Assembly: GCA_964479375.1 (NCBI GenBank)
Contig: CAYZKD010000004.1
Location: 1-53,111 of the forward strand
DNA: 53,111 bases
Origin: an uncultured Candidatus Saccharibacteria bacterium
GTDB taxonomy: Bacteria; Patescibacteriota; Minisyncoccia; Minisyncoccales; GWA2-38-27
Direction: 5' to 3'
The translations under genes and the position numbers were made by a program. Below, piece after piece: positions 10,954-42,820 of the stretch (its first letter is position 1; each line of letters opens with the position of its first letter). Under the pieces are notes generated by a model. It saw only the letters and a program-made list of their open reading frames with translations, had not been told where the DNA came from and did no database searches.

Positions 10954-12147
10954 ATGAAAATGGGGGACAAGATTCAGAAAATTACAGCCCAAGAGGTATT
11001 AAATTCTAGGGGGAGAACAACCGTTAAGGTCAGTTTGGAAACAGAAAGAGGGGTTTTTGCGGCCTCCTCGCCCTCCGGTGCTTCTACCGGAAAGCATGAG
11101 GCAGTAGAAGTTAAAACCCAAACTGCTATTTTTAATATTGAAGAAAAAATTGCTCCTGAGTTGAAGGGAAAAGACGTTGAAGACCAAAAAGGCATAGACG
11201 AATTGTTAATAGGGCTGGATGGATTAGGAGACAAGTCAAACTTGGGAGCGAACGCTATTCTGCCTGTTTCTTTTGCTGTCTGCCGGGCAGGAGCTGCTTC
11301 GGAGAGGAAACCCCTTTACAACTATATAAAAGAGAGCTTTCAGGAAGAGGCTAATCTTAACATCAGTCCCGCTTTCAATATTATTAACGGAGGAGTTCAT
11401 GCGGGGGGCGACTTGGAAATCCAAGAGTTTATGGTGGTTCCCGAAGGAGAAAGCGTTTCAGAAAAAATCAAGACAGGCTCTGCCATATACCAGAATCTAA
11501 AGCAGTTGTTAAAAGAAGCCTACGGGACAAGGGCTGTGAACATTGGAGACGAAGGAGGATTTGTTCCTCCTGTTGCCTCTTCGCAAGAGGCCCTTGATGT
11601 TATCGTGTCTTCTATTAAGAGAACAGGTGCTAAGGCTGCCGTAGCCCTAGACTGCGCGGCCAGCCAGTTTTACAAAAAAGGGAAATACTATTTGCAAGGG
11701 ACGGTTTTTACCAAAGAAGGGCTGCTTTCTTTTTACCAAGAACTTTTAGACAATTATCCTATTATCTCTTTGGAAGACCCCTTTGCAGAGGACGACTGGG
11801 AAGGGTGGCAGATGTTAAAAGATAAAATAGGGGATAGTTGCCTTGTTATAGGGGACGACTTAACCGTTACCAATACAGAGAGGATTAAAAAAGCCAAAGA
11901 CTGTTGTTCGGGCCTTCTTTTAAAGCCCAACCAAATAGGAACCTTGTCTGAGGCAATAGAGGCTTTTGACTTGGCAAAATCTTACAACTGGAGGGTTATG
12001 GTTTCTCATAGATCCGGAGAGACCTGCGATGACTTTATTTCTGATTTGGCTGTGGGAGTAGGGGCAGATTTTATTAAATCAGGAGCCCCAGCCGGAGGAG
12101 AAAGGGTTGCCAAGTATAATCGGTTATTGGAAATAGACAGCCTATGA
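10954..12147 (+). CDS. eno: Enolase (compact, 397 aa)
   Basis: EVLNSRGRTTV and SGASTGKHEA, SHRSGET. Confidence 0.9.
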   Translation: MKMGDKIQKITAQEVLNSRGRTTVKVSLETERGVFAASSPSGASTGKHEAVEVKTQTAIFNIEEKIAPELKGKDVEDQKGIDELLIGLDGLGDKSNLGANAILPVSFAVCRAGAASERKPLYNYIKESFQEEANLNISPAFNIINGGVHAGGDLEIQEFMVVPEGESVSEKIKTGSAIYQNLKQLLKEAYGTRAVNIGDEGGFVPPVASSQEALDVIVSSIKRTGAKAAVALDCAASQFYKKGKYYLQGTVFTKEGLLSFYQELLDNYPIISLEDPFAEDDWEGWQMLKDKIGDSCLVIGDDLTVTNTERIKKAKDCCSGLLLKPNQIGTLSEAIEAFDLAKSYNWRVMVSHRSGETCDDFISDLAVGVGADFIKSGAPAGGERVAKYNRLLEIDSL

Positions 12148-13325
12148 AGAAGATCGTTCTTATGGTGATAGACGGAATGGGGGACAGGCCCGTTTTTTCT
12201 TTGGGAGATAAAACGCCCCTGGGGGCAGCCAATACCCCCAACCTGGATAAGTGGGTCCAAAAGGGAAGTTGCGGCCTGGTAGATACTTTCCAGTTTCCTT
12301 TTGAAAAAAAACCTACCTCAGAGGGCACTCATATTGCTCTTTTGGGACTGAAAGAAAATTTTTTGGGAAGGGGGCCTTATGAGGCAGCGGGATGCGGTAT
12401 GGAATTGAAAGAAGGAGACCTCGCCCTTAGAGCGAACTTTGCCACAGTTGATCAGGATCTGGTTATAAAAGACAGAAGAGCCGGAAGAATTAAAGGAAAA
12501 AAGCCCTTAGTTGAAGCTCTTTCTGGGATTGAAATCGACGGAGTTCAGTTTTTAATCAAAGGCTCTGTCAGCCACAGGGCGGCTCTTGTAATGAGAGGGA
12601 AGGGCCTCTCGGACAAAGTTAAAAAAAACGATCCTAAGCGGCCGGGAGTTAAAGTTGAGGAAGTTAAGCCGACTTCAGAAGAAGGAGAGTTTACTGCCCA
12701 GGCCTTGAATAAGTTTATCGGAAAAGCCCATCAGATTTTAAAAGAGCATTCTTTTAATAAAGAAAGAGAATTTCCTGCCAATTATCTTTTGATCAGAGGC
12801 GCCGGACTCTATAAAAAAGTGAGAGGTTTTAGGGATAAATATGGACTTGGGGGATGCTGTATCGCAGGAGGAGGATTATATAAAGGAGTGGCCAAATTAG
12901 CGGGCATGGATTTAATTGAAGTTAAGGGGGCTACGGGAAGAACCGATACTAATCTCGGGGCCAAATTTAAATCTCTGAACGAGTGCTTAGAGGACTATGA
13001 TTTTATTTTCTGTCACATAAAAGGGACGGATATTTTTGGTCATGACGGAGATTGTGAGGGCAAAAAAGATTTTATAGAAAAAATTGATAAAAACCTTTCT
13101 ATTTTCTCAAAAAATAATAATGTCCTTTGGGCGGTAACCGCAGACCATTCTACTCCTTGTGAACTGAAAGACCATTCGCAGGATCCGACTCCGCTTCTTG
13201 TTTCAGGAAGCATTGTTGATAAGACTTCTTTCTTTTCTGAAAAAGAGTGCGCCAGAGGGGGGCTGGGGGTTATGGGGCAAGAGAGGGTAATGGACAAAAT
13301 TATGCAACTTGCAAAAAAACAATGA
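12144..13325 (+). CDS. apgM: Cofactor-independent phosphoglycerate mutase, archaeal type
   Basis: VLMVIDGMGDRP, TADHSTP, about 390 aa. ATGA overlap with eno. Confidence 0.85.
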   Translation: MKKIVLMVIDGMGDRPVFSLGDKTPLGAANTPNLDKWVQKGSCGLVDTFQFPFEKKPTSEGTHIALLGLKENFLGRGPYEAAGCGMELKEGDLALRANFATVDQDLVIKDRRAGRIKGKKPLVEALSGIEIDGVQFLIKGSVSHRAALVMRGKGLSDKVKKNDPKRPGVKVEEVKPTSEEGEFTAQALNKFIGKAHQILKEHSFNKEREFPANYLLIRGAGLYKKVRGFRDKYGLGGCCIAGGGLYKGVAKLAGMDLIEVKGATGRTDTNLGAKFKSLNECLEDYDFIFCHIKGTDIFGHDGDCEGKKDFIEKIDKNLSIFSKNNNVLWAVTADHSTPCELKDHSQDPTPLLVSGSIVDKTSFFSEKECARGGLGVMGQERVMDKIMQLAKKQ

Positions 13326-13368
13326 TTTGCTAAAATGCCAATCAGTTAAAAAAATAATAAAAAGCACA

Positions 13369-14103
13369 ATGTTCAATAAAAAAATAATTCCAGTAGCCAT
13401 TATTATAGCGGGTGTTCTTGTGGGGGGCGCCTTGGTTTATGCTCAGGCCACAGAATGCAAGGTCGAGGAAGGCCAAGCCAACTATATCTCTGCTGAAGAG
13501 GCAGGGGCTACTATAATAAACTTTGTTAATCAGAATATCTTAGGGGGGCAGACAGAGGCCTCTTTAACGGAAATCACAGAGGATAAGGGGCTTTATAGGA
13601 TGAAGATTACAGTTCAGGGCCGGGAGGTCACCTCTTATGCTACGAGAGATGGCAGCCTGTTTTTCCCTGATTTTTTTGATGTGGCTAACACCCCGCTGGC
13701 GGCCAAAAGCGAAGGGACTACTATTGGCCAGTTCTCTGTATCAGAAGATAGCGTCTGTAAAGAAAACGGGGCGCCCATGGTCTACTTTTTCGGTTCAGAG
13801 AGTTGTCCCCACTGCAGTTGGGAGCATCCCGTTGTTAGAGAAGTGGCAGAGAGTTTCGGAGATGAAATTTCTTTTCATGACAACATGGACGACCAGGAAA
13901 CAGATTTAGAGGTTTTCCAGAGGTATAGTTCCGGAGGAGTGCCTACTTTGGTGGTGGGGTGTAAGTATTACAGGGTGGGCTCCGGAGAAAATGGTGGAGA
14001 AGAGCAGGAAAAAGACAATTTAACAGCCCTTCTTTGTAGTTTAACGGATAACAAGCCTGGTAACGTCTGCGATCAGGTGAAAGACCTGATTGATCAGATA
14101 TAA
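13369..14103 (+). CDS. Membrane-anchored thioredoxin-fold protein (CPHC)
   Basis: N-terminal TM helix and FFGSESCPHCSWEHP. I prefer the start at 13369 because it avoids overlap with apgM. Confidence 0.6.
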   Translation: MFNKKIIPVAIIIAGVLVGGALVYAQATECKVEEGQANYISAEEAGATIINFVNQNILGGQTEASLTEITEDKGLYRMKITVQGREVTSYATRDGSLFFPDFFDVANTPLAAKSEGTTIGQFSVSEDSVCKENGAPMVYFFGSESCPHCSWEHPVVREVAESFGDEISFHDNMDDQETDLEVFQRYSSGGVPTLVVGCKYYRVGSGENGGEEQEKDNLTALLCSLTDNKPGNVCDQVKDLIDQI

Positions 14104-28430: not shown

Positions 28431-28529
28431 GCTCTTTGAAAATTCTGTTAATTATTTAACAGGACATATTATAGAATTTGGTTTTTTAAAGTTGTTCTGG
28501 ATATTCCGAGATTTAATTCTCATTATTTT

Positions 28530-28560
<31 letters not shown>

Positions 28561-28833
28561 TGCGACGTGGATAAGGCATGCAAGTCGAATGTCCGTTTTG
28601 CGGACATGGCAAATGGGTTAGTAACACGTAGATACACGCCATTCGCATGGGAATAACCCCGAGAAATCGGGGCTAATACCCAATGGTCCCGTCTCTGACG
28701 GGTAAAGGCATTGAGCAATCAATGCCGGCGAGTGAGGGGTCTGCGTCCCATCAGCTTGTTGGTAGGGTAATGGCCTACCAAGGCTCTGACGGGTAGGGGG
28801 TGTGAGAGCATGATCCCCAACAATGGCACTGAG

Positions 28834-28865
<32 letters not shown>

Positions 28866-29385
28866 CGAGAATCTTCGACAATGGGCGAAAGCCTGATCGA
28901 GCGACGTCGCGTGCCCGAAGAAGCTCTTCGGAGTGTAAAGGGCTTTTCTAGAGGAAGAATCCGCCATTGGCGGATGACGGTACTCTAGGAATAAGGAGGT
29001 GCTAATCACGTGCCAGCAGCCGCGGTAATACGTGGTCTCCAAGCGTTATCCGGATTAATTGGGCGTAAAGAGTCCGTAGGCGTCTCGAAAAGTTTTTTGT
29101 TAAAGTTTCAGGGCTCAACCCTGAGAAGGCAAAGAAAACTGGCGAGATAGAGGGCGCTAGGGGCTGGGGGAACGGTCGGTGTAGGGGTGAAATCCGTTGA
29201 TATCGACCGGAACACCAAAAGCGAAGGCACCCAGCTGGGGCGACCCTGACGCTGAGGGACGAAAGCGTAGGTAGCGAAGAGGATTAGATACCCTCCTAGT
29301 CTACGCCGTAAACTATGGACACTGGCTATTTGAAGTGTCGACCCTTCAAGTGGCGAAGCTAACGCGTTAAGTGTCCCGCCTGGGA

Positions 29386-29417
<32 letters not shown>

Positions 29418-29884
29418 AGACGGGGCCTTACACAAGCGGTGGATCATGTGGCTTAATTCGACACTAAGCGAGGAACCTTACCAGGACTTGAAATTCTGCT
29501 GACATCCTGCTGAAAGGCGGGTTTCCTTCGGGACAGCAGGACAGGTGCTGCATGGTTGTCGTCAGCATGTGTCGTGAGACGCGCTCTTAAATGAGGTAAC
29601 ATGCGCAACCCTCATCCTATGTTTTAAGTGTCATAGGAAACTGCCCGGGATAACCGGGAGGAAGGTGAGGATGACGCCAAATCAGCATGGCCCTTTGACG
29701 TCCTGGGCTGCACACATGATACAATGGAACCGACAATGGGCGAAGCCGTAAGGTAGAGGTAATCCCATCAAACGGTTTCTTAGTCCGGACTGGGGTCTGC
29801 AATTCGACCCCACGAAGCTGGAATCGCTAGTAATCGCCAATCAGCCATGTGGCGATGAATATGTTTCTAAGGCTTGTACTCACC

Positions 29885-30289
29885 AAATAGATGCGCCTGG
29901 CAGATATATAGACCAGGGAGTTAAAATCTCCCTTTAATAGTCGAGGAATAGTCATTTATCGTGAGATAAGTGGCAGAGGATTCTAAGACAAATGGCAGCC
30001 CGAAGTATTTAACGAGGACCGATCCATGATTGGGTGGTGAGCATGGAGAAGGTAGCTACCATTACTCTAATTCGGGATGCCGGGAATGGCCCATATATCG
30101 ACCCAGGGAGATCTGACGTAGTATAACGAAACTAACGCTGCGTCAGAAGTCAGCTAGATCGTAGTACTTGGTATTATCAGTTAATACTGAGGAAGGATCT
30201 TCTCTAATGCTATGGCGTTAGAGCTCGCCGTATGCGGGAAATCTGCACGTACGGTGGGAACGTCACTGCTAAGTTTCTAGTAAACATTC
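29885..30289 (+). other. ORF-less 405-nt insertion in the 16S decoding-centre region, class unresolved
   Basis: Exon sequence CTTGTACTCACC | ... | GCCCGTCAC matches the conserved GTACACACCGCCCGTCAC only if 29885-30289 is removed. Confidence 0.7.
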
Positions 30290-30374
30290 GCCCGTCACGT
30301 CAAGCGAGCTGGGAATACCCGAAATCCCATCCTAGATGGGCTGAAGGTAGGCTCAGTGAGAGGGACGAAGTCGT

Positions 30375-31156
30375 TGGTGCAAACTGCACGTTGCGACCCT
30401 TGAGAGTAATTTCAAGGAAAAACTCGGCTATATGCTGGAAAAACTGAGAATTTAGGGTTACTTATGCTATAATAATAGAAAATGGAAAGTATAAGTAAAA
30501 ATACCACTAATGCAGTCAATCAGCAGGGAAGTTTTCTTGATTTTCCAGAAAACCCCTCAGAGACTACACGCCGAGCTCCTCTTTATCCAAAGGCAATCAA
30601 GGCTTATCTCCTTGGATGCTTACACGATGGGACCTATAGCTCTAATAAAAGATACCGGTTTTCCCAAAAGGGAACAAGGTGGCTTAAGGTCTTACGTAAT
30701 CTCTTTAAGAAGCTGGGTTATAATTCTTGGATATATTGTGAAAGGAAAGAGAGAGGTTTATGTTCTAGAAACGCTTGCTAAGTTTTTAGACATTTATTTC
30801 GATCCCCTGGAGTTAAGAAGTCGAGAAGAGAAAAAAGATTATATTAGGGGCTTCTTTGACGCCGAAGGCGGAATTCCTAAGGCGAAGGAAGATAGATTCT
30901 ATATCCAATTAACCCAAAGCGACAAAGAAAAGTTAAGCAAGATAAAAGATCTTCTCGTTCATTTAGGAATCGAGACAGGAAAGATCCATAATCCCAGCAA
31001 GAAGGTAGATCCTCATTACTGGAGGATTTACGTTCTGTCTGCTTCTCAGAAACGTTTTGTTAAAGAGATCGGATCTTGGCATCCGAGAAAAATAAGGACT
31101 TTGGAGAAGAGGATGGTGATATAGTCCATGCTCTATAGCGATATGGAGGTAACATG
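30375..31156 (+). mobile_element. Group I intron (782 nt) in the 16S 3' minor domain, splitting GAAGTCGT|AACAAGG
   Basis: The 5' exon ends in U and the intron ends in G. P1 forms between exon GUCGU and the intron guide GCGAC (30393-30397) with a U:G at the splice site. GATATAGTCC core motif at 31118-31127. Confidence 0.75.
30482..31124 (+). pseudogene. Double-motif LAGLIDADG homing endonuclease, frameshifted
   Basis: Motif 1 (YLLGCLHDGT) is in the frame of ORF 30482-30781. Motif 2 (IRGFFDAEGG) is in the frame of ORF 30510-31124. The frames switch near 30734-30738 (TGGATATATTGTG). Confidence 0.7.
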
Positions 31157-31323
31157 AACAAGGCACGGGTAGGGGAACCTGCTCGTGGATCATTTCAAAA
31201 AAAATTGTTTGGTTGACTGGGATTAATTTGTAAGAATTCTCAAATTAATCTCAAGGACGTTGGTCGATAGTCCACACTTTCGACCTATTCAGAACAACTT
31301 TAAGAAACCAAATTTTCAAAACT

Positions 31324-31347
31324 CCGCAGGCTTTCTGTGGTTTTTTT
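31324..31347 (+). terminator. Hairpin plus T7 downstream of 16S
   Basis: CCGCAG gctttc CTGTGG TTTTTTT. Confidence 0.6.
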
Positions 31348-31349
31348 GA

Positions 31350-31378
31350 TTGACCAGTGAACTTTTTTTTGCTAAAAT
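31350..31378 (+). promoter_or_regulatory. Promoter TTGACC-17-TAAAAT, 9 nt before the ATG at 31388
   Basis: Hexamers and spacing read directly. Confidence 0.6.
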
Positions 31379-31387
31379 TTTTAAAGT

Positions 31388-31891
31388 ATGGCAGTACCGA
31401 AAAAGATTACAAGCTTTTTGGATAAAAATAAGGTCAAGTATGGTTTAATAGAGCATAAGAAAGTTTTTACAGCTCAAGATAAGGCTGCGACTTTGAAGAT
31501 AAAGCCTGCCAAGGTGGCTAAAACCTTGGTGGTGAAGCTGGACAAGGAAGTGGTTTTGGCGGTCGTTCCGGCTCATAGGAACCTAGATAAGAATAAGTTT
31601 AAGAAGGTAGCCAGTAAATGGAGAAAAGGGCAGGATAAAAAAGCAGTAAAGAAGGTTTCCTTTGGGACAGAAAGGTGGATTAAGAATAATTTAACGGGAG
31701 CGAAGGCAGGGGTGGTTCCTCCTTTGGGGATTGTTTGGAGGTTGCCCACATTTGTTGACAATTCATTAATGAGAAATCCTAAAATTCTGATTAATTCCGG
31801 AGATTATAAAGTATCAGTTGAGATAACGCCGAATAACTTTAAAAAAGCGGTTCCGGAGATTGTAACAGGCTCTTTTAGCAAGGTAAAATAG
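31388..31891 (+). CDS. YbaK/EbsC-type aminoacyl-tRNA editing (deacylase) domain protein
   Basis: Has the overall YbaK-like pattern (FLDKNKVKYGLIEH..., VVPPLG). It lies inside the rRNA operon spacer. Confidence 0.65.
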   Translation: MAVPKKITSFLDKNKVKYGLIEHKKVFTAQDKAATLKIKPAKVAKTLVVKLDKEVVLAVVPAHRNLDKNKFKKVASKWRKGQDKKAVKKVSFGTERWIKNNLTGAKAGVVPPLGIVWRLPTFVDNSLMRNPKILINSGDYKVSVEITPNNFKKAVPEIVTGSFSKVK

Positions 31892-31896
31892 AGGAA

Positions 31897-31973
31897 GGGC
31901 GTGTAGCTCAGGCGGCAAGAGCGCGTCTCTGATAAAGACGAGGTCCCAGGTTCGAGTCCTGGCACGCCCACCA
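31897..31973 (+). tRNA. tRNA-Ile (anticodon GAT), CCA encoded
   Basis: Acceptor GGGCGTG/CACGCCC, anticodon loop CTGATAA, T-loop TTCGAGT. Confidence 0.92.
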
Positions 31974-32088
31974 GAAAAACTAGACCGGGTCTAGTTTTCA
32001 CAAAGGAGGTCGGGGAGATTGGGTATCTCCCTGTGTAGGAAATTATTCAAAACCGAGGGTTTTGAAGGAGCGAGTTTCTGCGAGCGAC

Positions 32089-32161
32089 GGGCCCGTAGTT
32101 CAGCGGCCAGAACGCCTCATTTGCAATGAGGAGGTCGTGGGTTCAATTCCCACCGGGTCCA
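32089..32161 (+). tRNA. tRNA-Ala (anticodon TGC), G3:U70 present
   Basis: Acceptor GGGCCCG/CGGGTCC, anticodon loop TTTGCAA, T-loop TTCAATT. Confidence 0.9.
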
Positions 32162-32264
32162 CTACGTTGAAGATATTAGAACCTTCTTTAAGCAGAATCC
32201 AGAGTTGGCTGGCGCAAATTTGTGTTGCTTTTGCGAATCGTCTAAAGAGCCTACATCTCATTTA

Positions 32265-33080
32265 TTATAATGGACTTTTAATATTTTTAAGATTGGGATT
32301 TGTTACTTGGGTATAGATTTGTGTCGTTCGAATGTTTTGATGGCCCAAAAGCTCTTGCACATACCTGACACTAACGCCGTTCTCTAATAAATGTGTCGCA
32401 AAGCTATGTCTTAAAGAATGGAAAGTAGCACCTTTTTTGATATTTGTCTTCCGGATCGCGTTTTCAAAAGCTTTTTGAACCGCTCTTTCTGTTAGTTTTC
32501 CGCCTCGTTCGCTTTCAAAAAAGTAGTCGCTTGGATTTTTGCCAGCGATTAAATTTTTAAGACCGGTTTTTATTTTATCCGGAAAGATAGTGATTCTTTC
32601 CTTTTTGCCTTTGGCATTCTTAAGATGGATAGTTAGTTCCTTTAAATTAACATCTTTTATTTTCAAATTGACAACCTCGCCGATCCTTAAACCGGCGCCG
32701 TAAGCCAAAGAGATTATCAATTTATGTTTTGAGTTCTTGATTACATCGATAATATTTTTGATTTCTTCTCTCGATAAAACAATTGGCAATTTTTTACTCC
32801 GTTTGGCGAATTTTAGGTTTATCTTTCGGGAAGTTTTCAATACTTCGCGGTAAAAAAACTTTATTGCGCCTAAGTAAAGGTTTACTGTTTGTGAAGAGTA
32901 ATTTTTGCGATGTTTATTTAATAAAAACTGCCCTATGTTTTCCTCGTCTATTTTTTCTAGATTAAACTTTTTAAAATCAAAATACTCTTTTAAACAGCCG
33001 AGATAAGCTTTTATAGTTTTGGAGCTATAATTCCTTAATTTTAATGCCTGTTCTGTTTGTTTTAAATATTCTTGTTTCAT
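32265..33080 (-). CDS. Tyrosine recombinase (271 aa), IntI/Xer-like but lacking the IntI-specific insertion
   Basis: N-terminal SAM-like domain (YSSKTIKAYLGCLKEYF), AYGAGLRIGEV, HSLRHSFATHLL, LLGHQNIRTTQIYTQV, and a C-terminal NIKSPL. Confidence 0.85.
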   Translation of the reverse strand: MKQEYLKQTEQALKLRNYSSKTIKAYLGCLKEYFDFKKFNLEKIDEENIGQFLLNKHRKNYSSQTVNLYLGAIKFFYREVLKTSRKINLKFAKRSKKLPIVLSREEIKNIIDVIKNSKHKLIISLAYGAGLRIGEVVNLKIKDVNLKELTIHLKNAKGKKERITIFPDKIKTGLKNLIAGKNPSDYFFESERGGKLTERAVQKAFENAIRKTNIKKGATFHSLRHSFATHLLENGVSVRYVQELLGHQNIRTTQIYTQVTNPNLKNIKSPL

Positions 33081-33136
33081 AATTTTACAAAGAATGGTAA
33101 GCTAAAACTGTTAATAATTGGTTACTAGGGCCTCTA

Positions 33137-33165
33137 TCAACAATTGTACATTGAGTTCGTATAAT
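33137..33165 (+). promoter_or_regulatory. Promoter-like TCAACA-17-TATAAT pointing into the cassette array
   Basis: Read directly. It lies between the recombinase start and the attI-like junction. Confidence 0.35.
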
Positions 33166-33219
33166 ATGCAACAAAGGACCGGCTGCTTACATTCAATTCG
33201 CATAGAAACGAGTTAAGTG
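33166..33219. other. attI-like junction: collapsed repeat (ATGCAAC-aaa-GGA...CTTACATTCAATTCG) followed by GTTAAGTG
   Basis: Resembles repeat B with its L''-L' core deleted. GTTAAGTG is the reverse complement of the R'' box of repeat A. Confidence 0.45.
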
Positions 33220-33279
33220 AAATTGCCCAAAGCCCTTACATGTGATTAAATTTATATAATATCAAATAATTTTCTTATT

Positions 33280-33972
33280 ATGATGGCAGAAAAAATTAAC
33301 AGACCTTTTGTTTTCCTTTGTACGGGAATGTCTTTAGATGGTAAACTCGCAACATCTGAAAGGAAACAAACCGAAATAGCAACCAATGATGACAAAGAAA
33401 TGATGTATGAATGCAGAATAAAAGCTGATGCAGTCATGGTTGGCGGAAGAACTTTGTTTTTGGATGATCCTGGGCTTACTGTAAAAACAAAAGAAAGACA
33501 AAACCAAAGATTGAAACTTGGCAAAACCAAAAATCCTTTCAAGGTTGCGATTGTTTCTGATGTCGCAAATTTAAAACCAACAGGGGATTTCTTTCATAGA
33601 GGAGATACAAAGAAAATAATTTTTACAACTGAAAAATCACCTGAATCAAAAATCAATGAGTTAAAATATTTTTGCGAAATTTATGTTTACGGAAAACAAA
33701 AGGTAGATTTAAAACAAGCATTATCGAAACTTTATGAATTGGGTGTGAAATCATTAATGGTTGAAGGTGGTGGAGAGTTAATTTTTTCGTTATTGAAAGA
33801 TAATTTAGTTGATGAAATCAATCTTAAAGTTGGAAATTTAATTATTGGAGGAAGAAATTCTCCAACCTTTTGTGATGGCGATGGTTTTCTGCAAGATACT
33901 GCTAAAAAAGTTAAATTGATTGATTTAATCAAAAAAGAAAATTATTTGATTCTAAAGTATAAAGTCGAATAA
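33280..33972 (+). CDS. RibD C-terminal-domain / dihydrofolate-reductase-like reductase (cassette 1)
   Basis: GMSLDGKLAT, ADAVMVGGRT and LMVEGGGEL. Confidence 0.75.
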   Translation: MMAEKINRPFVFLCTGMSLDGKLATSERKQTEIATNDDKEMMYECRIKADAVMVGGRTLFLDDPGLTVKTKERQNQRLKLGKTKNPFKVAIVSDVANLKPTGDFFHRGDTKKIIFTTEKSPESKINELKYFCEIYVYGKQKVDLKQALSKLYELGVKSLMVEGGGELIFSLLKDNLVDEINLKVGNLIIGGRNSPTFCDGDGFLQDTAKKVKLIDLIKKENYLILKYKVE

Positions 33973-34046
33973 ACGGGCTTTGGGCAACTTGCTCACTATC
34001 GTTCGCGCCTCGCTGCGCTCTCACTCCATTTCATTCCGTTCGGGTC

Positions 34047-34142
34047 ACTTAACAAGGATTATGAGAGAAATGCCTCAGCTCGGCATTTCTCCAAATTTGC
34101 TCCACTTCGTTCCGCAAACTTCTCATAATCCTAACGTTATAT
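34047..34142. repeat. attC-like palindrome A (96 nt)
   Basis: ACTTAAC-aa-GGATTATGAG ... CTCATAATCC-taac-GTTATAT, with inner hairpin AAATGCC/GGCATTT. Confidence 0.6.
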
Positions 34143-34202
34143 TCAATATTATTCTTGCCCCTTAACGATAAATTTATAATCATTCAAATTTAACTAATAC
34201 TT

Positions 34203-34718
34203 ATGACATCAAAAGCCCTTATACTTGTAGATTTCGAAAAAGAATGGACTGATAAAAATTCAGATTATTTTGTTGGAGATGTTTCCGAGTTAATCGAAAA
34301 AACCAACAAACTTATTGATTTTTGTAGAAAAAATAATTACAAAATAATCTTCACTACGCACATCGAAAAAGATTCTAATAAAGCGTTTGTTGAAAACTCC
34401 GAAAATGTGGAAATTATCGATAAAATCAATAAACAAGATTCCGATGTGCTAATAAAGAAAAATAAAATCAGTCCATTCTTTAAAACAGATTTGGATAAGC
34501 ATCTTGAAGGAATTGATGAAATTGTCATCGCTGGAATTTTGACTAATTTGTGTGTTAGAAGCTTGGCTCAAGATGCTTATGATAGAGATTTTGAAATCAA
34601 ACTTATCAAAGATTGTTGTCAGGCTTTTGACAAAGAAACTCACAATTTCACAATCAAAGATTTGAAAGCTACAAGAGAAGAAATTGAATTCTTAAATTTG
34701 AATGAGTTTATTAAATAG
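34203..34718 (+). CDS. Isochorismatase-family cysteine hydrolase (cassette 2)
   Basis: ALILVDFEKEW and IAGILTNLCVRSLAQDAYDRDF. Confidence 0.8.
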   Translation: MTSKALILVDFEKEWTDKNSDYFVGDVSELIEKTNKLIDFCRKNNYKIIFTTHIEKDSNKAFVENSENVEIIDKINKQDSDVLIKKNKISPFFKTDLDKHLEGIDEIVIAGILTNLCVRSLAQDAYDRDFEIKLIKDCCQAFDKETHNFTIKDLKATREEIEFLNLNEFIK

Positions 34719-34721
34719 AAC

Positions 34722-34880
34722 GGGGCAAAAATAATACTCTGAAATTTCCCTTCGGGACGTTGCACTAAATTTCAGCCCTTCGAGGAATGTAACAAAGGAT
34801 ATGAGGTTACGAAGTCTTGCAGACTTCTCCACCCAAATTGCTCCCTGCGGTCGCAACTTCTCATATCCCCGATGTTATAT
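34722..34880. repeat. Repeat B: outer arm, CTGAAATTT/AAATTTCAG hairpin and attC-like palindrome (34787-34880)
   Basis: ATGTAAC-aaa-GGATATGAG ... CTCATATCC-ccgat-GTTATAT. Roughly 90% identical to repeat C. Confidence 0.65.
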
Positions 34881-34955
34881 TCAATTCCGCTCCCTCTCTC
34901 AAATGCTTATGTAATTCAATGATTTTATAAAATCCTACAATCTTATATAATTATA

Positions 34956-35771
34956 ATGATGAAAATAAAAGAAATTCAAGCATCCTCAATAATCACTAAA
35001 TCAAATTTGCCCGATGCAGATTATGTCATAAATCCTTATATTGGCTGTATGCATTCTTGTTTGTATTGCTATGCAAGATTTATGAAAAGATTTACTGGGC
35101 ACACAGAAGAATGGGGCAAATTTATAGATGTAAAAGTAAATGCGCCCGATTTAATTCCTGCCAAAACTTCAAAATATAAAGGAAAATCAATTTTTCTCGC
35201 TTCTGTAACTGACGCATATTTACCTCTTGAAAGAAAATACCAACTTACTCGCAAAATTTTAGAAAAACTTATTCCTCTACAATCAAACTTAGGGGTTCAA
35301 ACAAAATCGGATTTGGTTGTGCGAGATATTGATTTGCTCAAGCAATTCAAAAATTGCGAAGTTGGTTTTACTATTACTACTTTGGATGATAATTTGCGTA
35401 AAGAAATTGGGCCATTTACTTCGTCAGTTCAAAATAGAATTAAAGCGCTCGAAAAATTGAAAGAAGCAGGAATTAAATCTTATGTCTTTATTGGTCCCAT
35501 ATTGCCATTTTTGACAGATTGGAAAAAGATAATTCTTGAAACAAAACATTGCTCTGATTTATACATGTTTGAAAATTTGAATGTTAGAGGCAATATTTGG
35601 GACTCTGTCAAAAAATGGCTCAATGAAAAACATCCAAAATTATTAGAAGATTATGAGCGCATTTACTTTTCTAAAAGTGATTATTGGGATAAAGCTGAGG
35701 AAGAAATAAAACAATTCTGCAAAGAGCAAAGGGTAGAATATAGAATTTATTTTCATCATGGAAAGAAGTAG
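34956..35771 (+). CDS. Radical SAM protein (SplB/DNA-photolyase-like family, COG1533-like) (cassette 3)
   Basis: CMHSCLYC (CxxxCxxC), about 270 aa. Confidence 0.75.
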   Translation: MMKIKEIQASSIITKSNLPDADYVINPYIGCMHSCLYCYARFMKRFTGHTEEWGKFIDVKVNAPDLIPAKTSKYKGKSIFLASVTDAYLPLERKYQLTRKILEKLIPLQSNLGVQTKSDLVVRDIDLLKQFKNCEVGFTITTLDDNLRKEIGPFTSSVQNRIKALEKLKEAGIKSYVFIGPILPFLTDWKKIILETKHCSDLYMFENLNVRGNIWDSVKKWLNEKHPKLLEDYERIYFSKSDYWDKAEEEIKQFCKEQRVEYRIYFHHGKK

Positions 35772-35773
35772 TC

Positions 35774-35933
35774 GAGGGAGGGGGCGGAACTCTGAAATTT
35801 CCCTTAGGGACGTTGCACTAAATTTCAGCCCTTCGGGGAATATAACGAGGGATATGAGGTTACGAAGTCTTGCAGACTTCTCCACCCAAATTGCCCCCTT
35901 CGGTCGCAACTTCGTTAAATTCCGATGTTGTAC
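35774..35933. repeat. Repeat C: as B, but with a decayed L' arm (attC-like part 35840-35933)
   Basis: ATATAAC-gag-GGATATGAG ... CGTTAAATTCC-gat-GTTGTAC. Confidence 0.6.
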
Positions 35934-36116
35934 GCAATTCAAAAAATATTTTTCTTAATGTAAGATAAAGATAGTCTTTCAAAGGGGAATAAATTTGATT
36001 TTTTCTAAAAAACAGAGGGGGGTAATAATGTGTTTTCTCCACTCCGTTACGAAAACAATTATTTAAAAACACAAAATTTATAAATTATGCATAATATTTA
36101 CTTTTTATAAAAAAAT

Positions 36117-37100
36117 ATGGCAACAAAGAACACAACAAGCAATAATCCAAAAATATATTTTCTTGAAGTTGAGGCAGAAGATAAAAAACTAGTGAAAGAA
36201 GAATTTCCTCAAGCAAGAATATTTAATAAAATTTTATCTGAAAAAGAGATTATTAAACAATGCAAAGAAGCAGAGGTTATTTGTCCTTTTATCTATAGCA
36301 AGATCACCCGCAAGGTTATTGAATCTTTGTCTAATTTGAAGCTTATTATTACCAGAAGCGTAGGATATGATCACATAGACTTGATGGCTGCAAAGGAAAA
36401 AGATATTGTTGTTTGTAATGTCCCTGATTATGGATCCCATGTTATAGCTGAACATGTTTTTGCCTTACTTCTTTCTGGTTTAAGGCATATTATTGAAGGC
36501 GATGAAAGAGTTGAACGAGATAAAAAATTTTATTTTTCGGGCCTAAGAGGAATAGCGCTCAAGGGAAAAAATTTAGGTATTATCGGAACCGGCAAAATTG
36601 GCAAGAATGTTGCGCGTATAGCAAGCTCTGGATTTTTAATGAATGTTTTTGCTTACGACCCCAATCTCAACAAGAATCTTGCTCTAGAAAATCATTTTTC
36701 TTATACTGATTTGAAAACTATTTGGAAGGAATCCGATGTTATTACATTACATTGCCCCCTTCTTGAGAATACAAAACATTTAATAAATAAAAAAAGTATT
36801 TCTGCCATGAAAGAGGGAGTTGTAATAGTCAACACTTCAAGGGGAGGGGTAATTGATACAGGCGCTTTAATCCAAGGCTTAAAATCTAAAAAGATTTCTT
36901 ATGCACTTTTAGATGTTTTAGAGCATGAAAATAATATTAAAGAGAATAAAGAACTTTTAGAACTCCCAAATGTGATTGTTACGCCACATATTGCTTTTTA
37001 TGCTGACGATTCTATGGGGAAGATGTATAGCGAAGCCTTTGCCACTATAAATTCATTTATACAGAAAAAGGATATAGTAAATCAAATCAAAGGAGTATAA
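36117..37100 (+). CDS. D-isomer-specific 2-hydroxyacid dehydrogenase (D-lactate dehydrogenase-like)
   Basis: GIIGTGKIGKNVA, and the NTSRGG...TPHIAFY pattern. Confidence 0.8.
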   Translation: MATKNTTSNNPKIYFLEVEAEDKKLVKEEFPQARIFNKILSEKEIIKQCKEAEVICPFIYSKITRKVIESLSNLKLIITRSVGYDHIDLMAAKEKDIVVCNVPDYGSHVIAEHVFALLLSGLRHIIEGDERVERDKKFYFSGLRGIALKGKNLGIIGTGKIGKNVARIASSGFLMNVFAYDPNLNKNLALENHFSYTDLKTIWKESDVITLHCPLLENTKHLINKKSISAMKEGVVIVNTSRGGVIDTGALIQGLKSKKISYALLDVLEHENNIKENKELLELPNVIVTPHIAFYADDSMGKMYSEAFATINSFIQKKDIVNQIKGV

Positions 37101-37320
37101 TAAAGAGTTCTGAAAAATGAAATTCATCCCTAACCCCTCTTTTATTTTTCAAATAGAAAAAGTCAAATTTATAAGAATAAAGGAAAAATTGGAAAGGCTA
37201 AAGAAGAGAAAAATCTTTCAAGCAGATACTGCCAGAAGAAGAATCTTGAGTTTTCCACAGCCCCCCTTTTTTTGTGATTTTGTTAATGATATACTTAAAT
37301 AATAATTAAAGGTCGGCTTA

Positions 37321-38022
37321 ATGCTAAACTTTATTAAAAATATGTTATTAGACTGGTACGAAATTACAATTTCAGCCCTCAAGGATCTTTATGTGGGCCT
37401 TATTGACTTTACACCCAAGTTGATAGGCGCGTTAGTGATTTTCCTGATTGGTTGGATTGTTTCCGTCGGACTGGGTAAGTTGATCGCTGAGATCTTGAGG
37501 CGCGCAAAATTTAATCGCCTTTTTGAAAGAGAAGGAATGAAATCAGCCCTGGAAAAAGCAGATTTTAAAGTTGACGCAGCAGGATTCATTGGCGCTGTAT
37601 TTAAATGGGTCTTGGTGATCGTTTTCTTGATGGTTGCAGTAGAGATACTTGGATTCCAGCAGTTTGCTGCCTTTCTGTCCGACGTTCTCTCTTACCTACC
37701 CAACGTAGTAGTGGCTGCGTTAATCTTTGTGGTGGCTGTGATTATTGCCGATCTTCTGGAAAAAGTGGTTAGGGCTGCAGTAGAAAGTACCAAGGTAGGC
37801 TATGGCCACATAACCGGAATAATCGTCAAGTGGTCCATTTGGATTTTTGCGATTCTAGCTATTCTGTTTCAATTAAGGATAGCACCGGAATTAATTCAAA
37901 CTCTGCTAACCGGTGTTGTCGGTTTAATTGTATTAGCAGGAGGTCTTGCCTTTGGACTTGGTGGAAGGGATATAGCGGCTGAGATTCTTCGCGATGTAAG
38001 AAATAAGTTCAGGGGAGAATAG
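37321..38022 (+). CDS. Polytopic membrane protein with repeated TM-helix units (mechanosensitive-channel-associated TM_helix-like)
   Basis: About six hydrophobic helices. No catalytic motif recognised. Confidence 0.5.
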   Translation: MLNFIKNMLLDWYEITISALKDLYVGLIDFTPKLIGALVIFLIGWIVSVGLGKLIAEILRRAKFNRLFEREGMKSALEKADFKVDAAGFIGAVFKWVLVIVFLMVAVEILGFQQFAAFLSDVLSYLPNVVVAALIFVVAVIIADLLEKVVRAAVESTKVGYGHITGIIVKWSIWIFAILAILFQLRIAPELIQTLLTGVVGLIVLAGGLAFGLGGRDIAAEILRDVRNKFRGE

Positions 38023-38049
38023 GAAAAAATAGATCTATCTTAGAAATTC

Positions 38050-38089
38050 AAACAGACCAAGAATCTTATTTCTTGGTCTGTTTGTTTTT
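38050..38089 (+). terminator. Rho-independent terminator
   Basis: 13-bp stem AAACAGACCAAGA/TCTTGGTCTGTTT followed by GTTTTT. Confidence 0.8.
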
Positions 38090-38352
38090 ACGGGGTAGTG
38101 AAAAGGAAACGATAATTTCAGGACAGAGGGAAATAGAAATTTCAGGGTGGAGAAGACTCACAATTAATTCAAGGCCTGACATTTCTACTTTGCTCTACCC
38201 TGACAATATCGCGTTGGGCTAACAGTACAAGACTGAGGCTTGACAGGTCTCTGTGTTTTGTTAACATAGGGAATAGTTATGAACAGGAAGAATGAATGTC
38301 AAAAAACACAAAGCGGTTAACTCCACTCTGTATTTGATAATAACCAAAGGAG

Positions 38353-38374
38353 AACCGCTTTAGAGCGGTTTTTT
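38353..38374 (+). terminator. Terminator-like hairpin with an alternative upstream partner
   Basis: AACCGCTT tag AGCGGTT TTTT. The 5' arm can also pair with AAAGCGGTT at 38310-38318. Confidence 0.45.
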
Positions 38375-40872
38375 GATAAAAAGAAAGAAGGATGTACCTT
38401 GAAAATTAAAGACAGACAATCTAGCTTATTAAAAAGCCAAACTTTCTTATCGTTTTGTAGAAGAAGTTTTTAAAAGCAGATGGTGGATGCCTTGGGATAT
38501 CGAGGCGATGAAGGACGTGGCGTGACTGCGATAATCCTCGGGAAGGTGTCATGCAACCTTTGATCCGGGGGTTTCCAAATGGGGAAACCCGTTCCGCCTC
38601 AAAGCGGAACATCTCACATTTATTGTGAGAGGCGAACCTGCTGAAGTGAAACATCTCAGTAAGCAGAGGAAAAGAGAACGAACTAGTCCGCATTTTATTT
38701 CTATTCATTTGAAGAAAAATAAAGTGTGGCGTTATTCCCTTAGTAGCGGCGAGCGAAAAGGGATCAAGCCCAAACCCTGTTTTATACAGGGGGTTGTAGG
38801 AGGATAGCGTCGGGAGTGTTCCGCAAATCATTTATTTGAAATGCGGAATCTTCACCGAGGGAGAGCACTTAGGTAGAGCAATTAGACGAAGCTTCCTGGA
38901 AAGGAGCACCACAGAAAGTGAAAGTCTTGTAGTTTAAAGTTGCTTTACGCTCCTTGCTATCTGCCGCTTTTGCGGCAACCTGAGTACCATGAGTAAAGAT
39001 AACCTTGTGGGAAACATCCCGGACTAACCGGGAAAGGCTAAATACTCGATATCACCGATAGTGAACCAGTACCGTGAGGGAAAGGTGAAAAGTAGGGGGG
39101 TAACCCCGGTGAAATAGAACCTGAAACCATCTTGCTTACAAGGACTAGGAACCCCGTTTTTACGGGGCGACTGGGTGCCTATTGAAGAATGAGCCAACGA
39201 GTCTGAGTATTTAGTTTTGTCTAAGGGGTTCTGCCCCGAAGGCACAGCGAAAGCGAGTGTTAATAGCGCGTCCTTTTACTGAATACTCAGGACCCGAAGC
39301 CAGGCGAGCTTGCCATGGCCAGGGTGAATTCCACAGAAATGTGGAAGGAGGCCCGAACCTTTAGATGCTGCAACATCTTAGGATGAGCTGTGGTAAGAAG
39401 TAAAAAGCTAATCGAGCCTGGGAATAGCTGGTTCTCCCCGAAATAGCTTTAGGGCTAGCGGCATGTATAGATTTTGGAGGTAGAGCACTGGATGGAATTA
39501 CGTGGGCTTTGCCCAGTCTTTCCAACCAAACTCCGAATGCCGAAATTTTAAGCATGTTAGTCAGACTGCGGGGGCTAAGCTCCGTGGTCGAAAGGGAAAC
39601 AGCCCAGATCCTTATCTAAGGTCCCTAAACTTTTCTCTTTATGAGGAACCTCGCTTCGGCGGGGGGACTAAGTGTACTTAAGGAAGTGAATTTCCTAAGA
39701 TAGTTAGGAGGTTAGCTTAGAAGCAGCTATCCTTTAAAAAATGCGTAACAGCTTACTAATTAAGGAGATTCGCGCTAAAGATTCACGGGACTAAGTCCAG
39801 TACCGAAGATAGGATTAAATACTCAATCCGTTGAGTATTTAAGGTAGGGGAGCGCCCTTTATTCGCTGAAGGTTCGCTGAAAGGCGGGCTGGAGAGTAAA
39901 GGGGTGAGAATGTTGGCATGAGTAACCGCAATCCCGTTGAGAACACGGGACACCGAAATCCTAAGGTTTCCTTGGCAATGGCAATCAGCCAAGGGTTAGG
40001 CGGGCCTAATTTCGTCAACCGAAAGGTGGCGAGAGATGGACAGTCGGTTAATATTCCGACCCTCCGCTGGATTTTTTCTCAAAGAGACGGAGACTTGTAT
40101 TATATGCGGATTATTGGATTTCCGTCCTTGCCCTGAGATTTCTCAAGGGGTGAGGGGCAGCCTTGCTTCGGCTTGGTGAACATATAAGAGCAGTCTTCCC
40201 AGAAAATCTTTGAGAAAGCCAAATCTAGTTGGATCCGTACCGCAAACCGACACAGGTAGGATGGCGCTAGTACGCTAAGGTGAACGAGTGAAAGCTCCTG
40301 AAGGAATTCGGCAAAACAGCAGGCGTAACTTCGGAATAAGCCTTTCCCGCCTTAAGGCGGGACGCAGCAAAAGACCCCTGGCGACTGTTTATCAAAAACA
40401 CAGGTCCCTGCCAACTCGTAAGAGGATGTATAGGGGCTGAGGCCTGACCAGTGCTGGAACGTTAAGGCCGTCGGTTTCTGCTTTTTGTAGAAGCTGAATG
40501 GTTGAAGCGCCAGTGAACGTCGGCAGTAACTATAACTGTCCAAAGGTAGCGTAATCCCTTGCCGGGTAAGTTCCGGCCCGCATGAAAGGCTTAACGACCA
40601 GGGGACTGTCTCCAGGAGCAGCTCGGTGAAAATGCAATACCGGTAAAGATGCCGGTTACCCGCGGCTAGACGGAAAGACCCCGGGAGCTTTACTGAAGCT
40701 AGACATTGGATTTTGGTGTTAGATGCGCAGTGTAGGTGGGAGATTTTGATCCCTGTTTCTCGGAACAGGGGGAGTCGCCAATGAGACACCACTCTTTTAA
40801 CGCCTCAATTCTAACCCTCCGTTTAACGGGGGAAACATTGTTTAGCGGTCAGTTTAAGTGGGGCACTTGCCT

Positions 40873-41365
40873 TAAAGATTGGCTTCCTCCAAGTCAATCA
40901 GGGGGCCTTCGCAATGTGAATTGCGAAGCAAACTTGGCTATATGCTGGAACATCCGTGGTATCCGACGCTACTTTGCTTATGGCAGAGTAAAAATGCGTT
41001 CGGTGCGGACAATCAGCAGGGAAGAAAATTAACACATAGTGATTTTCCCCTCAGAGACTATACGCCAAGCCATTAGTAAATAATGGGTGGAATGATAAAA
41101 TCAAATTAGCCAACCCTTTTTCTAATGTGATGATATAGTCCGAACTTCTGGGCGACCAGAAGCATCGCTCAAGTGATGAATGAGCGAGACCTAAAATTAT
41201 GTACTCAAAAAAGATTTCAGCGAGAAATAGTTGTTGGAACCTTGTTGAAAAGGTATTTATTGGAGAATATACGTTTTATCGGAACCGACTGAAAAATTTG
41301 CTGAAATGATAAAACCAATAATCAATCAAATACCTTCGATGAGTTATAAACTAGGGAACGAATTG
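40873..41365 (+). mobile_element. Group I intron 1 of 23S (493 nt), just 3' of the P-loop GGGGC sequence
   Basis: Joined exons give GGGGCACTTGCCT|CCTAAAAGGTAATGGAGG, the same length as the conserved GGGGCGGTCTCCT|CCTAAAGAGTAACGGAGG. The 5' exon ends in U and the intron ends in G. GATATAGTCC at 41132-41141. Confidence 0.7.
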
Positions 41366-41607
41366 CCTAAAAGGTAATGGAGGCGTTTAAAGGTCGGCTA
41401 TTCCGCGATGGAAATGCGGAAGATAGGATAAAGCCATAAGCCGGCTTTACAGCGAGCAGGATATTGCGAGCTGTTGGGAAACCAGAACTTAGTGAACCGA
41501 CGGATTTTAGTAGAAAATCCGGAGATCATCAGCTAAAAGTTACCCCGGGGATAACAGGCTAGTAGGGCCCGAGAGTTCACATCAACGGCCCTGTTCGGCA
41601 CCTCGAT

Positions 41608-42014
41608 AGAATAGCCGATTGTCGAGGCAATAAACCAACTCATAACGGAGGAAGCCATATATAAAGACCCAGCAAACATGTTAGGACAAATATATATGGT
41701 CAACACCGTGGGAAGTTGCGAAAATAAGTATTGACACAAGAAATGGATTCCAATTAAAAAATCACTTTTGCTTACAAAGATGCAAAGAGGTTTAATTTTT
41801 GGATCGGATTTTGGAGAAAGTTAGTCAATGTAATTAGTCCGCACATTATCCTTTCGATAATGTGTAAAATAGGTTTTCGCAACCCCGTAACGACTGGATT
41901 CCTGCAAAAAGCAGGATGAAGATAGTTTTTTAAACAAAACTATAAAACGTTGGTATGCAGAAGGACATCTGCATAAAGGTATAGTCTACGCTATTAGTAA
42001 TAATAGGATTAGTG
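41608..42014 (+). mobile_element. Group I intron 2 of 23S (407 nt) in CACCTCGAT|GTCGGCTC (peptidyl-transferase region)
   Basis: P1 forms between exon CUCGAU and intron GUCGAG (41621-41626) with U:G. The intron ends in G. GGTATAGTCT at 41978-41987. Confidence 0.75.
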
Positions 42015-42071
42015 GTCGGCTCACCACATCCTGGGGGTGGAGCAGCTCCCAAGGGTTTGGCTGTTCGCCAA

Positions 42072-42347
<276 letters not shown>

Positions 42348-42692
42348 CGTGAGACAGGTTGGTCCCTATCTACCGTGGGCGCAGAGTCTTGAGGGAAGTT
42401 GGTCCTAGTACGAGAGGACTGGACTGAACTGACCTCTGGTGTACCAGTTGTCCTGCCAAGGGCACTGCTGGGTAGCTAAGTCAGGCAGGGATAAGCGCTG
42501 AAGGCATATAAGCGCGAAGCCCCTCCCAAGATAAGGACTCTTAGATTCCTCGAAGACGACGAGGTTGATAGGCTGCAGGTGTAAGCACTGCGAAGTGTTG
42601 AGCCAAGCAGTACTAATAAATCATTACTTATTTTTGCAAAACATTTAAGAAAGGTTGGCCTTTTAATGGACTAGATTGTCACTATAGAGATT

Positions 42693-42820
42693 GTGGCTAC
42701 TATAAGGGAGCCAGACTGGAAGTGCTCCACCCGATCCCATACCGAACTCGGAAGTGAAATCTTCCAAGGCCGATGATAGTCCTTATGGGCGAAAGTAGGT
42801 AGCTCCCTTATAGTGTCCAC
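42693..42820 (+). rRNA. rrf: 5S rRNA
   Basis: Helix I ACTATAAGGGAG/CTCCCTTATAGT, CCCATACCGAACTCGGAAGTGAAA, and GCCGATGATAGT. The ends are approximate. Confidence 0.85.

Follow-up and report, generated by a model that had tools for sequence, protein, structure and literature searches.

Probable integron-type gene cassettes with a cassette-specific extension of the attC hairpin in a Patescibacteria-like bacterium

How do neighbouring gene units that differ completely in their end sequences come to carry, each at its own start, the complement of its own 3' end? This question is raised by an array of genes in contig CAYZKD010000004.1 (assembly GCA_964479375.1, positions 1 to 53,111 of the forward strand) of an uncultured Candidatus Saccharibacteria bacterium. 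The whole analysed stretch of 53,111 nucleotides (nt) is hereafter called the window. Three open reading frames (ORFs), all codirectional with the array, are each trailed by a repeat of ~150 nt. The repeats can be aligned with one another and share an inverse core (..TAAC), a palindrome of 10-12 base pairs (bp), conserved CCCAAATT and AACTTC motifs and a core GTTRNRYNN. Our analysis indicates that the units are probably integron-type gene cassettes in an integron-like platform of a Patescibacteria-like bacterium, and that their recombination site, the attC hairpin, is extended by a stem specific to each cassette.

The insertion site of the platform (attI), the three cassettes and their pairing segments (arms) lie as follows, all on the forward strand.

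33190..33212, forward: attI, CATTCAATTCGCATAGAAACGAG, with the crossover after G33212
33213..34136, forward: cassette 1, with an ORF for a RibD_C-type pyrimidine reductase (33280-33972)
Cassette 1 arms: 5' outer 33223-33235 and inner 33261-33279; partners 33975-33987 and 33932-33950
Cassette 1 3' end: side region 33988-34044; attC core 34045-34144 (R'' box 34045-34053, R' box 34136-34144)
34137..34874, forward: cassette 2, with an isochorismatase-family ORF (34203-34718)
Cassette 2 arms: 5' outer 34145-34161 and inner 34175-34193; partners 34722-34738 and 34692-34710
Cassette 2 3' end: side hairpin 34739-34784; attC core 34785-34882
34875..35927, forward: cassette 3, with an ORF resembling radical SAM 'mobile pair B' (34956-35771)
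Cassette 3 arms: 5' outer 34883-34896 and inner 34956-34969; partners 35774-35791 and 35746-35759
Cassette 3 3' end: side hairpin 35792-35837; attC core 35838-35935, with a degenerate L' at ~35910-35926

In cassette 1, the R' and R'' boxes paired at 8/8 positions (GTTAAGTG/CACTTAAC) and the outer arms at 13/13 (TTGCCCAAAGCCC/GGGCTTTGGGCAA). The corresponding values for cassette 2 were 8/9, the odd pair being T:G (GTTATATTC/GAATGTAAC), and 15/17 (AATATTATTCTTGCCCC/GGGGCAAAAATAATACT). Cassette 3 gave 9/9 for the boxes (GTTATATTC/GAATATAAC) and, for the outer arms, 11/12 ungapped or 13/14 with a 4-nt bulge (TTCCGCTCCCTC/GAGGGGGCGGAA). These are the six complementarities that a preliminary description of this DNA had listed, and all were present in the registers given there. 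The description had put the pairing at ~25 nt from each cassette start; the pairing is real, and its extent was understated. An inverted-repeat scan and local alignments revealed inner segments that succeed the outer arms in the same order on both sides, paired at 18/19 positions in cassette 1, 17/19 in cassette 2 and 14/14 in cassette 3. Beginning at the R box, the paired region reaches the start codon at the 5' side and enters the last ORF codons at the 3' side. Circularizing the units in silico and folding the junctions, as had been proposed, yielded one long imperfect hairpin on either strand, with z-scores against dinucleotide-preserving shuffles of -7.45 (cassette 1) and -5.43 (cassette 2).

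The same property was found well beyond the window. We have compared 30 cassettes bounded by consecutive attCs in related arrays, aligning the 45 nt that follow the R' 9-mer and, as reverse complement, the 110 nt that precede the R'' 9-mer. The mean score was 23.9 for the arms of the same cassette vs. 13.8 for non-own pairs (95th percentile of the latter, 19; permutation p < 5e-5), and the own arm was top-ranked of 30 in 21/30 cassettes. For each of the three window cassettes, the own 3' arm was the rank 1/30 partner of the 5' arm, in agreement with the earlier claim that the arms are cassette-specific and nevertheless match their own partner. Complementary runs led to a similar picture: exact runs of at least 10 nt linking the first 130 nt to the last 250 nt numbered 1.48 per cassette in own pairs vs. 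0.137 in non-own pairs, and two or more separate runs were found in 13/27 own vs. 12/702 non-own pairs. The outer stem adds 10-45 or more bp beyond the R box, is cassette-specific and is often made of several segments.

The position of the arms is set by the recombination site. The 5' arm starts nearly always at +3 after the R' 9-mer, behind a conserved AA. For the 3' arm there are two end points: 2 nt before R'', where a conserved CA faces the AA (class A), or 40-65 nt before R'', with a side branch in between (class B). When pairing was counted in this fixed register, with no alignment freedom, the first nine positions of nine class A cassettes were 78-100% Watson-Crick paired, against ~20-45% at most variable positions for non-own pairs. 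The distances of the arms to the start and stop codons vary while the register to the R box is fixed, and thus the arms are an extension of the attC hairpin rather than ORF-anchored elements. In predicted folds of the bottom strand, the joined ends of the same cassette reached -44.5 kcal/mol, compared with -35.5 kcal/mol for the resident arrangement, the own junction being the more stable in 24/27 cassettes (Wilcoxon p = 2e-4).

The boundaries of the units could be defined from copies of cassette 2 elsewhere. Scanning metagenomes with the protein of cassette 2 gave 31 orthologues, and in 16 other contigs the cassette lay behind unrelated attCs or behind attI. At the left edge of these 16 copies, pairwise identity was 29% in the 30 nt before the G and 93% from the TT on, the base before the TT being G or A. 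At the right edge, compared in 12 loci, homology stopped at ...GACG|TT and the following six bases varied by locus. Homologues located outside cassettes had no attC beside them. Insertion and excision cross over between the G and the TT of the R' box, and the cassettes are mobile units exchanged at G|TT. Because the crossover lies there, the last 8 nt of every attC R' box belong to the next cassette and match its R''. Accordingly, an R' 9-mer in related arrays matched the R'' of the following attC and not that of its own site. Boxes of the same cassette agreed at 5.27 of 6 variable positions, vs. 3.41 for non-own boxes, and one array (L037; L numbers designate related loci) displayed four successive 9/9 matches. 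The pairing of the inner 8-9 nt, between R' and the cassette's own R'', is a known consequence of the G|TT crossover; it is textbook integron biology and not new.

The outer arms are a different matter, and the isochorismatase cassette was the most informative in this respect. At least four sets of self-complementary arms were found with it: the window type (TATTATTTTTGCCCC/GGGGCAAAAATAATA), of which the window copy itself has one T-to-C mismatch; that of L060 (TCCGCCTCTGTGCCCC/GGGGTACTACGGGGA), where the R box and the attC also differ; that of L065 and L066 (TCGTCCTCCGTGCCTA/TAGGCACTCCAGACGA); and that of L010 (TATTTTTCCGCAACC/GGTTGCGGAAAAATA), paired at 15/15 positions. This is the covariation that the preliminary description had suggested looking for in homologous cassettes. 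Together with the 16 cassette 2 copies and the R'/R'' chains, it supports the view put forward there that each unit is an independent mobile module whose ends meet in a circular intermediate at G|TT. In L010, moreover, the 5' untranslated region (UTR) holds a 23/23 complement of the ORF 3' end although the DNA of the ORF is just 70% identical to that of the window, which implies that the 5' UTR tracks the coding end. In the stem base, the arm sets of L060 and the window type diverge at the mirror positions GGGGC / GCCCC, and the side branch is variably present or absent among the orthologues.

Exchange was also seen in the other direction, with a shared chassis carrying different cargo. The 5' 190 nt and the 3' UTR of a fourth, decayed unit of the window are homologous to those of cassette 0 of L002 (reverse complement, 11575-13616). 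The window unit (35928-37225) carries a 2-hydroxyacid dehydrogenase gene, vs. three other genes, including one for a radical SAM protein, in L002. A systematic search brought up no second pair in which one chassis is combined with different cargo.

We have investigated the sites themselves with two covariance models, R1, built from the three repeats of the window, and R2, a shorter core model built from 16 diverged sites, whose alignment comprises 67 sites. Matches to R1 or R2 were obtained in most contigs encoding a close recombinase homologue, and 48/50 attC matches in related loci were on the strand opposite to the recombinase homologue and upstream of it. This is the layout of the window, where the recombinase gene is adjacent to the array and faces away from it. 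When plain repeat finding near recombinase homologues gave no shared repeats, a housekeeping Xer recombinase beside a coincidental array had been considered; this idea was ruled out, as the covariance models located diverged attCs in nearly all such loci. The attI motif, CATTCAATTCGYATARAAACGAG|TT or a near variant, was present in ~17/19 related loci examined, 100-140 nt before the recombinase start and followed by a sequence that differed each time (TTNNNNNNAAT). It was also found directly before the cassette 2 copies of L044, L046, L050 and L052.

Across the 67 aligned sites, the AAC and GTT triplets are invariant, and the boxes follow the patterns RYYYAAC (R'') and GTTRRRY (R'). In the L stem, 96.9% of positions were paired in 16 sites and 8/12 pairs had changed on both sides. 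The covariation score of 0.556 was reached in 0/500 shuffles, and slid controls gave at most 0.086. The attC is a conserved hairpin. No conserved extrahelical base was found in the L stem of the aligned attCs, which pairs without a conserved bulge, and the asymmetry of the site is placed elsewhere: in R-L spacers of 1 nt vs. 3-5 nt, in the AA/CA loop and in the side branch. The AA/CA loop, conserved in sites that have no side branch, is a 2x2 mismatch between the AA that follows the R' 9-mer and the CA that precedes the R'' 9-mer. It lies between the R box and the outer stem, as seen at window positions 33220-33222 and in the 34044 region as well as in related loci. It may be a polarity mark standing in for the extrahelical bases. 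The side branch, of 45-60 nt, lies between the 3' arm and R'' in ~2/3 of the sites and bears a conserved ACGYTGCRCT motif (in the window at 34739-34784, 35792-35837 and 33988-34044).

Several further observations were made on individual sites. The GTTGCAC motif of the side branch recurs in the apical loops of some attCs (L009, L011 and L022). In L056 (996-1089), the apical segment of the attC, from L'' to L', is inverted relative to orthologous attCs, and the model matches both strands. Upstream of its cassette 2 copy, L054 has a collapsed attC (GAATATAACAAGGA|TTATATTC), in which R'' and the start of L'' are fused straight to the next cassette, the remainder of the site being deleted. Where the L stem ends apically, a top-strand G stands opposite a T in 54/67 sites (alignment A6, columns 25/225); it would be a C.A mismatch if the bottom strand folds.

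The gene consistently linked to the attI and attC arrays encodes a tyrosine recombinase.

32265..33080, reverse: tyrosine recombinase of 271 amino acids, IntI/XerA-like, transcribed away from the array (Pfam PF00589 and PF13495)

It scored 233 bits with the XerA/integron-integrase model NF040815 of NCBIfam (cut-off 220) and 215 bits with TIGR02249 (IntI), which is below the cut-off of 265 and split into two stretches. The match to VchIntIA (PDB 2a3v; E = 3e-43) was likewise in two stretches, leaving ~30 residues of the chain unmatched. The archaeal XerA structures 4a8e and 5hxy each matched in one end-to-end stretch, with about the same closeness as VchIntIA. The recombinase and four homologues share a gap of ~40 residues relative to IntI1 at the IntI-specific additional domain, which is located around patch III (Messier & Roy 2001, cited in PMC9668308). 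By these alignments, the recombinase lacks that domain. The catalytic R, HxxR, H and Y residues are kept in all five proteins, together with an IntI-like C-terminal SPL motif. The C-terminus of the window protein (32265-32280) reads ..KSPL, like that of IntI1 (..RSPL..) and VchIntIA, which hints that, the missing domain notwithstanding, it is more closely related to IntI than to XerC/D.

With classical integrons (class 1 and the Vibrio cholerae repeats, VCRs, of Vibrio) the platform shares an outward-facing recombinase gene, an attI and mostly single-ORF cassettes in the same direction. Also shared are R'' and R' boxes of the form RYYYAAC and GTTRRRY, co-varying L'' and L' arms, the G|TT crossover, a cassette found at attI or at various attCs, and cassettes that start with the distal R' part matching their own R''. 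In the canonical attC, whose anatomy and cleavage point have been described (PMC2727003), the R boxes are the boundaries. Here, in contrast, the pairing continues for 10-45 or more bp past them, after the AA/CA loop and often with a side branch of 45-60 nt. The integrase lacks the IntI-specific domain and the attCs lack the conserved extrahelical base of the L stem. In four class 1 cassettes on two plasmids (aac(6')-IIc, arr-3, aac(6')-Ib4 and ereA2), pairing amounted to just 7-11 nt and no outer arms were found. The platform is integron-like in its layout, attI, attC and crossover, and it lacks two defining features, the IntI domain and the extrahelical bases.

Integron architecture beyond the classical bacterial hosts has been described in metagenome-assembled genomes of archaea (Ghaly et al. 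2022, PMC9668308). According to that study, the attCs fold in the manner of bacterial ones and the IntIs possess the additional domain, unlike the recombinase studied here.

The Xer systems also offer points of comparison. The recombinase exceeded the NCBIfam cut-off of the XerA model and aligned end to end with 4a8e and 5hxy. A chromosome-dimer resolvase of the XerA type acts at one conserved dif site of 28 bp; the gene studied here is consistently linked to attI and attC arrays. The R'' context GGGGCACATAAC resembles the XerC arm of the Escherichia coli dif site (GGTGCGCATAA). At attP(+) of the CTX phage, XerCD recombines folded single-stranded DNA, with the crossover within a long imperfect hairpin and not at its base; the crossover site of the cassettes is likewise embedded in a long imperfect hairpin. 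The arrays differ from dif and CTX in having many sites of variable sequence and conserved pairing, a dedicated attI and cargo, rather than a single dif or a phage genome. The pdif modules of Acinetobacter plasmids are small gene modules bounded by Xer-type sites as well. Their 28-bp sites are inverted, conserved and double-stranded, whereas the G|TT boundaries of the cassettes are direct and the sites are structured palindromes of variable sequence. A literature search of limited coverage returned no description of integrons in the candidate phyla radiation (CPR)/Patescibacteria or of extended cassette-specific attC stems. The new part is the outer pairing together with an integrase without the IntI domain, the inner pairing being ordinary integron biology.

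How the stem might work follows in part from where the crossover lies. Because it falls inside the hairpin, insertion splits the long hairpin, and the basal 3' half comes to sit at the cassette start. The full stem is then available only when the cassette ends are joined, as in an excised circle, or when they pair across the ORF in single-stranded DNA. We propose that it forms in the excised, probably single-stranded, circle, where it would stabilize the folded attC of the free cassette. It might also supply duplex flanks to a Xer-like integrase devoid of the IntI domain that grips extrahelical bases. Resident attCs, flanked by non-matching arms, would fold less well and would be weaker substrates. 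Complementarity could be maintained by selection, by hairpin-templated correction or by both, with the 5' UTR following the more constrained 3' coding end. The perfect stretches of 15-23 nt in diverged orthologues favour some templated process.

Several points weigh against this interpretation. Nine of the 30 cassettes had no arm above background, although some of them may hide attCs missed by the model. L059 is a chimera that combines the 5' arm of type 1 with the 3' arm and attC of type 2. Arms that do not match can thus be retained in an array, and pairing is not obligatory for that. Integrons recombine the folded bottom strand only; here the mismatch types favoured neither strand, nor RNA over DNA. 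In the arms and R box, 13 top-strand G:T stood against 23 A:C mismatches, which is not significant, and the L stem had 22 G:T against 21 A:C, with one conserved G.T pair set aside. The comparison with classical integrons is confined to four class 1 cassettes. The role of the stem is one that we infer, and the circular cassette and a folded strand are predictions from sequence and computed folds.

Among the other explanations, pairing at the RNA level deserves attention, although we regard it as unlikely. The arms would then pair in the sense transcript and form a 5'-3' stem around the ORF, acting in processing by a double-strand-specific RNase, messenger RNA stability or the control of translation initiation. 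The arms and inner segments do flank the ORF: in the window, they extend up to the start codon on one side, and on the other they begin 2-3 nt past the stop codon. The cassette ORFs share the direction of the array, which here is also that of the ribosomal RNA (rRNA) operon. Predicted top-strand folds are also stabilized by joining the ends (-41.6 vs. -33.5 kcal/mol). Against this stands the register, which is fixed to the R box and not to the codons, the 3' arm lying ~0 to 60 nt from the stop codon. In class A, without a side branch, the arm just prolongs the recombination hairpin. A sense-strand stem was not marked by an excess of G:U-type pairs (the 13 vs. 23 given above), and the loop in a linear transcript would measure 0.3-4.8 kb.

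Similarly improbable, in our view, is a functionless relic of cassette genesis, in which an attC was placed in an existing hairpin behind a gene, or assembled upon it, leaving the arms as the slowly decaying halves of that hairpin. The finding of one ORF with different sets of attC plus arms, with breakpoints at the mirror GGGGC / GCCCC positions, is what such an origin might leave behind. The same applies to one arm/UTR chassis with different cargo (window unit 4 and L002) and to a side branch held by some orthologues and not others. Decay is, however, at odds with the perfect pairing in L010 (15/15 and 23/23) at 70% DNA identity, which indicates ongoing maintenance. The stems extend into coding sequence, and no attC accompanies homologues outside cassettes. 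The arms are not followed by a T-tract, and a search for intrinsic terminators (GC-rich hairpin plus T-run) called none at the attCs or arms, its lone site being inside the first ORF. This also agrees with the earlier argument that the pairing is hard to explain as a simple terminator.

The preliminary description had further offered terminal inverted repeats, as in a transposon-like module or a miniature inverted-repeat transposable element. Inverted repeats near both unit ends would fit this idea, which we nonetheless judge very improbable: the boundaries defined by homology are two direct G|TT points shared with attI and attC, the arms are internal to them and differ in sequence between units, and there is neither a target-site duplication nor a transposase, nor any copy at a non-att site with target duplications among the 31 orthologous loci. 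Chance complementarity in AT-rich, low-complexity spacers, for which the AT-rich region and the many weak inverted repeats of the scan might speak, is scarcely credible, as the early description had also held, given the permutation test, the fixed-register separation of own and non-own arms, the roughly tenfold enrichment of exact complementary runs and fold z-scores of -5.4 and -7.5.

The preferred reading, integron-type cassettes with an extended attC stem, leads to a broader one that we offer tentatively and consider rather doubtful: a widespread, undescribed Patescibacteria lineage of integrons, with a Xer-sized integrase lacking the IntI domain, a site with a long cassette-specific stem instead of a hairpin that ends at the R box and has extrahelical bases, and exchange of chassis and cargo at mirror stem positions. 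If true, the long-open question of how genes join attC sites would become directly testable. Integrons are a model system for gene capture, in which the IntI domain and an R-box-based attC with extrahelical bases are treated as defining. The lineage described here retains the attI, the G|TT crossover and mobile single-gene cassettes, does without both defining features and has a long stem in addition. It provides a natural experiment on the minimal needs of structure-specific recombination, possibly an intermediate between Xer and IntI recombinases and, in the chassis/cargo and arm-type exchanges, a handle on cassette origin. It also indicates that ultra-small, genome-reduced bacteria actively exchange gene cassettes.

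The remaining parts of the platform are a promoter candidate and the fourth unit.

33137..33165, forward: candidate outward promoter into the array, TCAACA-17-TATAAT, a weak call from a consensus scan alone
35928..37225, forward: decayed cassette 4, with a 2-hydroxyacid dehydrogenase ORF (36117-37100)
Cassette 4 arms: 5' 35938-35954; inner 35989-36020 and 37134-37172; 3' arm remnant ~37205-37225; attC lost

In the consensus scan, the count of promoter-like sites in the region was not above that of shuffles. Searches with the attC models found no attC after cassette 4, and its 3' arm sequence was not found downstream. In the third attC, the L' arm at 35910-35926 is replaced by CGTTAAATTCC, and as a result the L stem of its hairpin can no longer form. 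This site and the attC-less fourth unit mark a decaying distal end of the array.

The platform is located inside an rRNA operon (28524-42811; 16S, tRNA-Ile, tRNA-Ala, 23S and 5S), in the same direction, between tRNA-Ala (32089-32162) and the 23S gene (38460-42635), which is interrupted by two group I introns (40876-41162 and 42093-42339). An Rfam scan of the window returned only rRNA, transfer RNA (tRNA) and group I introns, with no family for the attC repeats. An MscS-like gene and the 2-hydroxyacid dehydrogenase gene also lie between tRNA-Ala and 23S. A LAGLIDADG ORF (30510-31124) and an ORF with a tRNA-editing domain are found between 16S and tRNA-Ile. In related genomes, the neighbours of the platform are different.

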